From an uncultured Clostridia bacterium (GTDB taxonomy: Bacteria > Bacillota > Clostridia > HGM11514): 48,922 bases of DNA. Where the stretch lies: assembly GCA_902478725.1 (NCBI GenBank), contig CABSMD010000001.1, positions 1 to 48,922 on the forward strand, in the 5' to 3' direction. Below, one piece after another: positions 47,441-48,922 of this stretch (its first letter is position 1; the number at the start of each line of letters is the position of its first letter). The translations under genes were made by a program, and so were the position numbers. Below the pieces are notes generated by a model. The model searched no databases, had not been told where the DNA came from, and was given only the letters and a program-made list of their open reading frames with translations.

Positions 47441-47504
47441 ATGAGATAAAAGAAGAAAGATTTTTGGGGAATGTCGAACGATTCCCTATTCCATTCTGGG
47501 AAAT

Positions 47505-47616
47505 ATATGGTATAATGTAAGCAACTTTGGTTTCAACAGGAAAGTTTCTACCGGTATAAATAGTTTTATTCGTAGAAACTAAAGTTGCTTAGTAGCAGTA
47601 AGATTTATGGTATATT
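47505..47616 (+). repeat. Promoter-plus-hairpin repeat unit N, upstream of noc
   Basis: TGgTATAAT (47509-47516), then a 16-bp stem 47519-47534 / 47575-47590, then a second TGgTATATT (47609-47616). Homologous to the units at 48569-48776. Confidence 0.6.
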
Positions 47617-47653
47617 TGCAGAAGATCTTTGATACATAAGAGGAGGAACTGGA

Positions 47654-48478
47654 ATGGCATTTTTTGGATTCGGGGCCGAAAAGATAGATAAGGACAAGAT
47701 TTATACCGTTGAGATAGAGAAGGTTGTAGCAAACCCCTATCAGCCAAGAAAGGAATTTGACACCGAAGCGATCAATGAATTGTGCCTGTCGATCAAGCAG
47801 TTTGGTATCCTACAGCCATTATTGGTGCGGAAAAAGAAGGATACCTATGAGCTGATCGCCGGGGAACGCCGGCTGAAGGCCGCGACACAGGCAGGTTTAC
47901 AGGAGGTTCCGGTTATCATCAAAGAGATGACCGACGACGATTCCGCAGTGGTGGCTCTGATTGAAAACTTGCAAAGACGGGATTTGTCTTTTATGGAGGA
48001 GGCCAACGCATTCCATCAGTTGGTAAACGTACATGGAATGACGCAGGAGATGCTTGCCGAACGGATCGGCAAGAACCAATCGACAATTGCCAACAAGATG
48101 CGTCTGTTGAAGCTGGCTGACCCGGTGAAGCGGCTCATCAGCGAACACAACCTCACCGAACGGCACGCGCGGGCTCTTTTGAAACTGCCGCATGAGCAGG
48201 CACAGCTTGAGGTGCTCGACCAGATCATAGAAAAAAACCTCAATGTCAAGGACAGCGAGGAACTGATCGAACAGTATCTGTCCAACTCCTTTGCGGAGGA
48301 AAAGCTACCCAAGCGCAAGAAAAAGGCAATGCGGCCGATTGTGTCAAAGGACGTGAGGCTATTCCTTAACACAATCAACCAAGCACTGGACACAATGAAA
48401 AATTCCGGAGTCGCGGCGGTCTCTGAGAAGAAGGAGTTTGACGACCACATCGAATACTCGATCATCATCCCAAAATAA
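47654..48478 (+). CDS. noc: ParB-family nucleoid occlusion protein (Noc-like)
   Basis: 274 aa. ParB box GERRLKAA and an HTH (QEMLAERIGKNQSTIANKMRLLKL). Its position between rsmG and soj matches Firmicutes. Confidence 0.8.
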   Translation: MAFFGFGAEKIDKDKIYTVEIEKVVANPYQPRKEFDTEAINELCLSIKQFGILQPLLVRKKKDTYELIAGERRLKAATQAGLQEVPVIIKEMTDDDSAVVALIENLQRRDLSFMEEANAFHQLVNVHGMTQEMLAERIGKNQSTIANKMRLLKLADPVKRLISEHNLTERHARALLKLPHEQAQLEVLDQIIEKNLNVKDSEELIEQYLSNSFAEEKLPKRKKKAMRPIVSKDVRLFLNTINQALDTMKNSGVAAVSEKKEFDDHIEYSIIIPK

Positions 48479-48480
48479 AT

Positions 48481-48496
48481 TGTTTCACGTGAAACA
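48481..48496. promoter_or_regulatory. parS centromere-like site, TGTTTCACGTGAAACA
   Basis: Perfect 16-bp palindrome matching the Firmicutes parS consensus TGTTNCACGTGAAACA, 3 nt after the noc stop. Confidence 0.85.
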
Positions 48497-48529
48497 AAAG
48501 GCCCAAATAATAAAAAATTTGGGCCTTTT
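48496..48529 (+). terminator. noc terminator
   Basis: AAAAGGCCCAAAT / ATTTGGGCCTTTT stem followed by a T-run. Confidence 0.8.
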
Positions 48530-48568
48530 GTATTGCCTATAAAATTACCCCTTTTATTTTTGATAAGG

Positions 48569-48776
48569 TTATGATATAATATAAACAACTTTGGTTTCAA
48601 CAGGAAAGTATTTGCCGGTATAAAAATTTATTTCAAAGAAAGCGAAGTCTTAGTAGCACTAAATTTTATGGTATAATATAAGCAACTTCGGTTTCAACAG
48701 GAAAGTTTCTGCCGATAAAATATTTATTTCAAAGAAAGCGAAGTTGCCTTAGTAGCACTAAATTTTATGGTATAAT
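48569..48776 (+). repeat. Two tandem promoter-plus-hairpin repeat units (S1, S2) plus a third promoter copy, upstream of soj
   Basis: TATAAT boxes at 48575, 48672 and 48771 (periods of 97 and 99 bp), each with an upstream TG. Stems at 48586-48598/48638-48648 and at 48682-48695/48734-48747. Confidence 0.6.
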
Positions 48777-48805
48777 AAGACAATCAATTGTAAGAGGGTG
48801 TTTCT

Positions 48806-48922
48806 GTGGGCAAAGTGGTAGCGATAGTCAACCAAAAAGGCGGCGTGGGAAAGACGACGACGGCCGTCAACCTGAGCGCGAGCCTGGCGGAGCTGGGAAA
48901 GCGCATTCTTGTTGTGGACATC
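48806..48922 (+). CDS. soj: ParA/Soj chromosome partitioning ATPase (N-terminal fragment, runs off the window)
   Basis: Hand translation from GTG 48806: [39 protein letters not shown], with the deviant Walker A motif KGGVGKT. Confidence 0.85.

Follow-up and report, generated by a model that had tools for sequence, protein, structure and literature searches.

A dispersed, lineage-restricted family of promoter-like hairpin repeats precedes noc, parA and other genes in an uncultured Clostridia bacterium

Introduction

In the window, by which we mean the whole stretch of 48,922 nucleotides analysed here (contig CABSMD010000001.1 of an uncultured Clostridia bacterium, assembly GCA_902478725.1), the spacer between rsmG and noc carries a promoter-like box, a long stem and a second box, and similar units lie downstream of noc. 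A previous reading of this DNA, made from the sequence only, regarded the unit as a feature of that spacer that might control noc, and explained the likeness between units by selection on an RNA or cruciform structure and not by recent copying. The locus therefore raises a simple question: is this unit a local regulatory element of noc and parA, or a member of a larger set that also stands in front of other genes? To answer it, we looked at the unit itself, at its copies in the genome and in relatives, at the pairing of its stem and at the genes that follow it.

Results

The unit of the rsmG-noc spacer and its surroundings

Repeat search and alignment placed the unit of the rsmG-noc spacer, hereafter copy A, at 47501-47617 of the plus strand, which is also the strand of the other features described below unless otherwise indicated. 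It opens with the box TATGGTATAAT (47506-47516), an extended -10, TRTG-type sequence resembling a sigma-A promoter, and its stem begins 2 nt downstream. The TGgTATAAT contained in this box had been recognized in the sequence-only reading; it occupies 47508-47516, one base before the start at 47509 that was given there. The stem (P1) is formed by the arms AAGCAACTTTGGTTTC (47519-47534) and GAAACTAAAGTTGCTT (47575-47590), exactly where they had been located, and reaches 47518 and 47591 when the outer pair is included. The repeat search returned arms of 20 nt (47518-47537 and 47572-47591), 90% complementary and 34 nt apart. Between the arms of P1 there is a loop (47535-47574) whose 5' half, approximately 47535-47557, contains AACAGGAAAGT and CCGG, and whose 3' half is AT-rich and variable. 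The tail (47592-47616) ends in the second promoter-like box that had also been reported before noc, TATGGTATATT at 47606-47616, which is 37 nt away from the noc start codon (47654), with a GAGGAGG at 47640-47646 in between. The gene downstream of copy A (47654-48478) is a noc-like member of the ParB family, with the Pfam domains ParB_N and HTH_ParB.

Two more units, S1 and S2, sit between noc and parA, which brings the window to three units. Unit S1 (48565-48660) has the box TATGATATAAT at 48570-48580, and a deletion of 2-3 nt in its 3' arm weakens the stem. Unit S2, together with a terminal box, spans 48662-48777; its own box is at 48667-48677, its arms are at 48682-48695 and 48734-48747, and the terminal box (48766-48776) lies 29 nt ahead of the parA start, a GTG at 48806. 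The alignment of the three units agreed with the changes that had been pointed out between copy A and S2: stem position 10 is U-A in the former and C-G in the latter, and position 11 is G-U and G-C, respectively. In addition, S1 presented U-G at position 10, intermediate between the other two, and S2 a G.G mismatch at position 12, where copy A has G-C. The loop core AACAGGAAAGT was identical in the three units and the 3' half of the loop diverged, also as described before.

When folded as RNA, copy A reached -23.8 kcal/mol (z -4.07) and S2 -20.6 (z -3.65), in both cases with none of 200 shuffled sequences as good; S1, at -10.5 (z -0.21, 85 of 200 shuffles as good), folded no better than chance. 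The minus strand folded about equally well (z -5.09 for copy A and -3.09 for S2), so the fold alone picks no strand. The alternative helix AGTTTCTAC / GTAGAAACT (47543-47551 / 47572-47580), which had been suggested to compete with the long stem, does exist; its 9 bp are private to copy A and were present in the minimum-energy fold obtained with DNA parameters.

Other features were recorded in the same region. A perfect parS palindrome, TGTTTCACGTGAAACA, is found at 48481-48496, starting 3 nt past the noc stop (0 expected by chance), and was identified with what we take to be the parS consensus. A 15-bp perfect terminator-like hairpin follows noc at 48494-48531, its foot overlapping parS. About 30 nt upstream of the first box of copy A, TGTCGAA (47473-47479) fits what we assume to be the Spo0A-box consensus, TGNCGAA; it is a candidate only. 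On the minus strand, each unit of the window contains a promoter-like match (47536-47507, 48600-48571 and 48697-48668) formed by TTGAAA, 18 nt and TACCAT or TATCAT. Aimed back into the upstream gene, these matches could correspond to antisense transcription or to a chance by-product of the repeat, and we give them little weight. A contig from a sequencing run matches 47557-47788 exactly, from the loop of copy A into noc; the RNA label of that run is a guess, and the match is no evidence of expression.

A repeat family restricted to one lineage

A blastn search with S2 against the assembly of the same genome (3.08 Mb in 479 contigs, 92% complete, 5% contamination, 50.4% G+C) gave 53 matches, and with an nhmmer profile built on the three units of the window the number of hits rose to 70 at E <= 0.001. 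These 70 units form 54 arrays on 45 contigs (39 single, 14 double and 1 triple), and copy A, which had been taken for a feature of the rsmG-noc spacer and of noc control, is just one of them. The units make up 0.33% of the DNA and have a G+C content of 34.0%, compared with 50.4% for the genome. As expected of a repeat that breaks assemblies, 14 of the 54 arrays are located at most 130 nt from a contig end.

A covariance model (R1), built from 59 long-stem cores, was used to search 40 other genomes of the family and the class, 11 of them from the same family. No unit was found in 39; the borderline match in the relative G009 (E 9e-4) was discarded, as the hairpin there is short and unrelated and has no further copies in that genome. 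A 24-letter pattern of the loop core, run against approximately 185,000 species genomes, from which the organism's own records were possibly excluded, matched 3 contigs of unrelated phyla, about the number expected by chance. In metagenomes the same pattern matched 10 contigs, 9 of which carry 17 units in arrays of 1-3; these 9 contigs are 80-99.8% identical to contigs of the genome under study and therefore come from close relatives. Plasmids and phages searched by blastn, and viral contigs searched with the loop pattern, gave no match. At gathering thresholds, Rfam 15 had 0 matches in the whole window and in six further loci, and at E <= 10 the best sub-threshold matches in the last 1.6 kb of the window fell off the units. 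As far as these sequence searches go, the family is an interspersed repeat restricted to this lineage. Noncoding, present in many copies and shorter than about 300 bp, it belongs to the class of small interspersed intergenic repeats that includes BOX, RUP, ERIC, bcr and Correia.

Relatives that have a noc orthologue (53-61% amino acid identity) present AT-rich spacers of 98-170 nt between rsmG and noc and of 382-646 nt between noc and parA (four of seven loci read). A repeat search in the spacers of three of these relatives detected no such unit or hairpin.

Anatomy of the units

The units follow a common plan: a TRTGnTATAAT box, 2 nt, a stem of 16-17 bp, a roughly 40-nt loop and a roughly 15-nt tail, with a period of approximately 97-100 nt. 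The stem-loop measures about 74 nt. One to three units are arranged head to tail, and each array closes with one extra box located 20-100 nt ahead of a start codon. Conservation is high in the box, in the 2 nt that follow it, in the two stem arms and in the loop's 5' half (TTTC AACAGGAAAGT..CTGCCGG); the AT-rich 3' half of the loop is variable and the tail differs by subfamily, with a GTAG in many units, not in all. Nearly every stem has one purine-purine mismatch, either G.G at pair 14/68 or A.G at pair 12/70 according to the subfamily, and the stem of copy A is unusual in being paired throughout. The homology starts a few bases before the upstream box and stops a few bases after the last one, and several arrays continue past that box with the initial 6-8 bases of a further stem, so that an array consists of n units plus the beginning of the next. 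In one subfamily, the hairpins are chained by box-less linkers behind a single upstream box.

Several subfamilies (e.g. C32:17219-17384 and C130:6973-7138, where C numbers are contigs of this genome) have AGGAAAG in the loop followed, after 13-14 nt, by GAAT, and the main subfamily, which includes copy A, has AAAT. The former arrangement resembles what we take to be the -35/-10 pattern of sigma-H and is a candidate only. A box with the first bases of a stem (TATAAT/TATACT-GT-AAACAA/AAGCAA) and without a hairpin was seen at C16:17430, C111:5843 and C401:1609; these solitary promoter-like sequences may be relics of unit loss through recombination between boxes.

Covariation in the stem and the question of the strand

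In 59 units of the genome, 87.4% of the pair cells were standard, against at most 60.7% when the 3' partners were slid. Cells changed on both sides numbered 61, compared with 27.1 ± 3.5 after shuffling, and none of 500 shuffles reached 61. Changes on both sides were present in 7 of the 17 pairs, and several variants were frequent: pair 13/69 is C-G in 31 units and G-C in 23, pair 11/71 C-G in 33 and U-A in 18, and pair 9/73 C-G in 47 and U-A in 6. The 16 distinct units from relatives behaved in the same way (89.3% of cells paired, compared with 56.3% at most after sliding; 18 cells with double changes, compared with 7.3 in shuffles, a count reached by 0 of 500) and contributed further compensated variants. 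At an orthologous locus shared by C62 and the relatives' contigs L124 and L130, with flanks 86-88% identical, the stem has been kept by two-sided changes and the 3' half of the loop has diverged. It should be noted that the copies are kin, and the double-change counts therefore overstate the number of events; our reading of the alignments suggests at least eight separate compensations, on several backgrounds. Judged by these alignments, the pairing of the stem is under selection, as had been argued from copy A and S2.

With default settings, RNAalifold gave no consensus structure for the 59-unit alignment, and for this reason the stem was tested with a structure that we supplied. A mutual-information scan within the loop revealed no second covarying helix in the unit alignment. 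A possible pairing between the inner 5' arm of the hairpin and the loop GGAAAGT was also rejected, with no covariation and columns 14/29 only 42% paired.

The observation that G-U pairs exist only in the plus-strand reading did not serve to tell the strand once the whole family was considered, since the stems of this genome contain 45 G.U/U.G cells and 34 A.C/C.A cells (34 and 33 when three mismatch-prone pairs are left out). In the relatives the counts are 16 G.U and 3 A.C, in units that are close kin and where a few inherited changes dominate. As regards RNA or DNA as the form of the hairpin, the genomic context leans toward a transcribed element.

Promoter boxes and downstream genes

The sequence TRTGnTATAAT is a strong form of the sigma-A promoter in Firmicutes, following the extended -10 rule. 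Among the 82 perfect TRTGNTATAAT motifs of the genome, 24 lie inside units, all of them in sense orientation. The box upstream of the hairpin matched the hexamer at a mean of 5.20 of 6 positions, was perfect in 20 of 41 cases and conserved A2 and T6 in 39 of 41. For the gene-proximal box the mean was 4.80 of 6, with 11 of 40 perfect and A2 and T6 in 28 of 40; the upstream box scores higher even though the proximal one was chosen as the best match in a window. A two-hexamer promoter scan left the plus-strand boxes uncalled because of their poor -35 regions, and the only sites that it called in the units were the minus-strand TTGAAA-18-TACCAT/TATCAT sequences.

According to a greedy gene call, the next downstream gene is co-oriented with the array in 35 of 42 cases, and the other 7 arrays point away from it. 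Between genes of the same strand, 15 arrays were co-oriented and 3 were not; 10 arrays have divergent genes on their two sides and 4 have convergent ones. In 33 of 44 evaluable cases, an ORF of 70 aa or more with the same orientation starts 5-110 nt past the array, but a crude control in the reverse direction gave 21 of 44, which makes this proximity test a weak one. Pfam matches were obtained for 19 of the 23 downstream proteins scanned, and the families are unrelated and share no theme: they include NUDIX, PBP, DAHP synthase, UvrD-type helicase, cytidylate kinase and ABC transporter proteins, in addition to Noc and ParA in the window. Taken together, the co-orientation, the sense boxes, the better-kept upstream box and the chained hairpins speak for transcripts that begin at the upstream box and read through one or more hairpins into the gene.

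Two familiar kinds of leader element were considered and set aside. Such unrelated downstream families make a ligand-specific riboswitch unlikely; the downstream pathways are unshared, and the unit is not conserved across genera (39 of 40 genomes lack it). Regarding intrinsic terminators, with a G+C-rich stem, a loop of 3-8 nt and a run of T, none was called at the units.

Dispersal of the units and mobilizing functions

The nearest neighbour of a unit was found at another locus in 52 of 59 cases. Identity to the nearest neighbour had a median of 85% over a core of about 80 nt and a maximum of 96%, and the median over all pairs was 66%, a distribution that indicates an old dispersal without a recent burst. 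Copy A itself shares its highest identity, 86%, with a unit on contig C75 and not with S1 or S2, which shows that the units spread by copying and then diverged for long. To that extent, the contrast drawn before between structural selection and copy-paste was not supported.

Blocks bigger than one unit have also been copied: 4-5 loci (C37:5311-5574, C3:25347-25610, C28:6140-6402, C13:2573-2836, and also C200) carry the same composite of two units joined by a special linker. Its order is one stem subtype, the special linker with a weak -10 and then usually the other subtype. The C62 locus has one unit in this genome and at least two and three units, respectively, on two contigs of relatives. 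In the second unit of C155 (C155:6114-6225) the 5' arm is of the subtype of the neighbouring unit and the stem is broken, and the orthologue of a relative (L121:1397-1476) pairs; this arm replacement looks like gene conversion between tandem units. The two boxes that flank one unit were alike at 8.73 of 13 positions, against 8.15 after shuffling (reached by 2 of 10,000), a likeness that would suit target-site duplications differing from copy to copy and that inheritance within subfamilies explains equally well.

In one relative, an ORF of the CAT family (chloramphenicol acetyltransferase, PF00302; L123:291-935) and a separate repeat of about 200 bp (L123:940-1200) lie just upstream of two units. 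Copies of a short hairpin mark both ends of this repeat, which shares 88-96% identity with sequences on C477, C4 (two stretches) and C9 of the genome under study. The orthologous site of the latter genome, on C90, has no CAT gene, ~200-bp repeat or units, just a solitary box-like promoter.

No Y1_Tnp/RAYT gene (PF01797) was found in the 92%-complete genome; the control search found the family in 6 of 14 reference genomes. DDE_Tnp_1 and RVT_1 are represented by three loci each, all on unit-free contigs. An ORF flanked by the 5' and 3' halves of a unit (arm-ORF-arm) was not seen in the genome, in a search whose short 3'-half profile is insensitive. As a check on the replication strand as the reason for the orientation, the GC skew was calculated over 10 kb on each side; 29 of 42 arrays had positive values on the strand of the unit, a figure confounded by gene direction and by the short contigs; among the arrays on the C-rich strand, 9 of 13 still follow the orientation of the downstream gene.

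The units were also compared with established classes of mobile repeats. They depart from MITEs in that the arms are internal and the homology extends to direct-repeat boxes on both sides instead of ending in terminal inverted repeats; nor was an autonomous IS whose ends match recognised in the 92%-complete genome, where the DDE_Tnp_1 loci share no contig with the units and no ORF was seen between unit halves. A REP/REPIN-RAYT system was rejected in view of the missing PF01797 and of the units themselves (about 74 nt and 34% G+C), which are not G+C-rich palindromes of 20-40 bp with a GTAG or CGTC tag. Integron attC sites have core sites of the consensus RYYYAAC / GTTRRRY and lie 3' of cassette ORFs, in a single array beside intI; AAGCAAC / GTTGCTT deviates from that consensus, by eye, at two positions per side, and the units are dispersed 5' of housekeeping genes.

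Discussion

What, then, is the unit that stands before noc? The evidence tips the balance, if slightly, toward a portable promoter with a transcribed 5' hairpin leader, as a new family of the kind of BOX, Correia elements and "mobile promoters". Transcription starts about 7 nt downstream of a -10 hexamer. RNA polymerase with sigma-A would then start from the upstream box at the very foot of the stem, and the hairpin would open the mRNA leader of any gene that follows, at its extreme 5' end; copy A would serve noc, and S1 and S2 would serve parA. The gene-proximal box, where intact, would provide a second start with a short leader. Most likely, such a 5' stem-loop would stabilise or mark the transcript, and the conserved half of the loop would be a candidate protein site. 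The units would have spread among loci by some copying route, the length of the arrays being altered afterwards by recombination between boxes or units.

Several observations argue against a promoter with a leader. The excess of G.U over A.C in the stems of this genome is not clear, contrary to what a strongly selected RNA helix would give; the stem of the second unit of C155 is broken; the 7 of 42 arrays that face away from the next gene and the 4 convergent ones are unexpected if the units were kept purely as promoters; the plus-strand boxes have poor -35 regions, so that the promoter prediction depends on the extended -10 rule; and a proximal box that fires would bypass the hairpin. A bolder form of the idea, which seems to us distinctly unlikely, is a self-propagating directional promoter-leader cassette of an undescribed kind and without a transposase partner, entering at, or recombining with, sigma-A -10 boxes, possibly through a single-stranded DNA or RNA intermediate that requires the hairpin. 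About 50 unrelated housekeeping genes would thereby have come under the same promoter and hairpin, and one host factor reading the invariant loop would make of them a regulon created by dispersal.

Part of what argues against a promoter would be natural in a selfish hairpin DNA element of the MITE, REP/REPIN or PATE type, in which a transposase or HUH enzyme recognises the folded strand or the paired ends, and the boxes and the co-orientation are by-products of tolerated insertion sites or of a replication-strand bias. Similar numbers of G.U and A.C and a tolerated broken stem suit selection during copying and not in place, and some arrays have no following gene; the high copy number, the restriction to one lineage, the dispersal between loci and the low G+C content also agree with it. 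Furthermore, in 29 of 42 arrays the G-rich strand is that of the unit, and in the window the sense strand would be the lagging-strand template, provided that the Bacillus gene order from rpmH to spo0J applies here. However, this genome, 92% complete, yielded no RAYT, its DDE_Tnp_1 and RVT_1 loci are all on contigs free of units, and no unit halves were found around an ORF. The arms are internal and the ends appear to be constant direct-repeat boxes, not variable target-site duplications, most arrays of the C-rich strand (9 of 13) still follow the downstream gene, and a selfish element explains neither why the 5' half of the loop is conserved nor why the upstream -10 box is the best kept. All in all, we regard a selfish element as rather unlikely. 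The uneven conservation that it does not account for, with a loop nearly invariant in its 5' half and free in its 3' half, is what would be expected of specific regulatory RNA leaders or small RNAs, whose loop (AACAGGAAAGT...CCGG) would be shown to one dedicated trans-acting protein, RNA or nuclease; the approximately 50 downstream genes would be members of one post-transcriptional regulon, or the arrays would give rise to unit-length RNAs by processing. The covarying stem, the hairpins chained behind one promoter, the 16 to 3 ratio of wobble to A.C in the relatives, and a GGA in the loop, presumably the kind of motif bound by CsrA-type proteins and here a candidate only, are compatible with such leaders. 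Nevertheless, Rfam matched neither the window nor the six further loci, no second helix covaries, the downstream genes lack a common theme, no candidate partner was recognised, and a dedicated regulator system would not usually be missing, as this family is, from all other genera searched, so that we hold a regulon of this type to be unlikely.

There remains the interpretation from which we started, a local hairpin, attenuator or cruciform specific to noc and parA and possibly tied to ParB/Noc binding. It has on its side that three units flank noc and that a perfect parS lies between noc and S1. Nevertheless, 67 of the 70 units are elsewhere, before unrelated genes, the closest relative of copy A is on another contig, relatives have noc spacers of similar length without unit or hairpin (four of seven loci read, three searched for repeats), and no terminator-like feature was called at the units, which makes a noc-specific element extremely improbable.

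The portable promoter with a hairpin leader can be compared with several known systems. Bacillus subtilis ermC and aprE mRNAs have 5'-terminal stem-loops in their leaders that stabilise the transcript. The resemblance is the stem within a few nt of the 5' end, here a prediction based on the constant spacing of 2 nt that separates the stem from the box; ermC and aprE have, however, single-gene leaders, and here the leader would belong to a dispersed family. Correia elements are classic MITEs, with terminal inverted repeats, a TA duplication and outward promoters at both ends. They resemble our family as small dispersed repeats with promoters and hairpins, and differ from it in that our boxes are one-way direct repeats whose orientation follows the gene. 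In Neisseria they have been described as gene-adjacent functional promoters and as RNA hairpins that can be targeted by nucleases (Siddique et al. 2011 and other work cited in PMC3575422 and PMC3049150).

BOX elements of Streptococcus pneumoniae have been described as intergenic and modular, with a variable number of tandem inner modules and predicted stem-loops when transcribed; their ends were reported to stimulate downstream genes, and array length differs between strains (Croucher et al. 2011, PMC3049150). The family described here is likewise a Gram-positive intergenic modular repeat with tandem units and stem-loops. BOX is described as consisting of boxA, boxB and boxC, with terminal inverted repeats that are said to resemble those of ISSpn2 (PMC3049150), whereas our units are of one type, with direct-repeat -10 boxes and no IS partner, and by description the two are set apart. 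The short dispersed palindromes of REP/REPIN-RAYT systems (Bertels and Rainey 2011, cited in PMC3575422) share with the units the maintenance of pairing, the tandem or composite arrangement and the restriction to a lineage; REPs, however, are G+C-rich sequences of 20-40 bp, tagged by GTAG or CGTC and served by a cognate Y1 transposase, and the units are AT-rich, with a loop of about 40 nt, in a genome without PF01797.

Putative mobile promoters (PMPs) were described as closely similar upstream stretches in front of non-homologous genes of one genome (Matus-Garcia, Nijveen and van Passel 2012, as presented in the commentary PMC3575422). In that account they are linked to no known mobile element, their route of spread is unexplained, and some are suspected of carrying RNA motifs (PMC3575422). 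The family of the window also precedes non-homologous genes without a known mobile element, and its median identity of 85% over the core of about 80 nt lies within the PMP definition by sequence (at least 80% identity over at least 50 nt, upstream of non-homologous genes); as PMPs, the units would have a promoter activity that is predicted from motifs. The PMP families reported are mostly pairs at about 92% identity (PMC3575422), and here we have approximately 70 modular, tandem units with a covarying hairpin. The repeat was not found in the collections searched (species genomes, plasmids, phages, viral contigs and Rfam). It is a new family that stands in kind beside BOX, Correia and PMPs, and is set apart from them by boxes that all point one way, by arms that lie inside the unit and by the absence of any partner enzyme in the searches made.

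For the annotation of this genome, the repeat accounts for many of the contig breaks in the assembly, and single copies should not be taken for riboswitches or attenuators of individual genes. Should the units prove to be active promoters, the 54 arrays would put about 50 genes of this uncultured bacterium, including noc, parA and those for a PBP, DAHP synthase and a UvrD-type helicase, on copies of one module. The family would then be a clear natural case of promoter propagation, in which the diverged copies (median pairwise identity 66%) would show what selection keeps.
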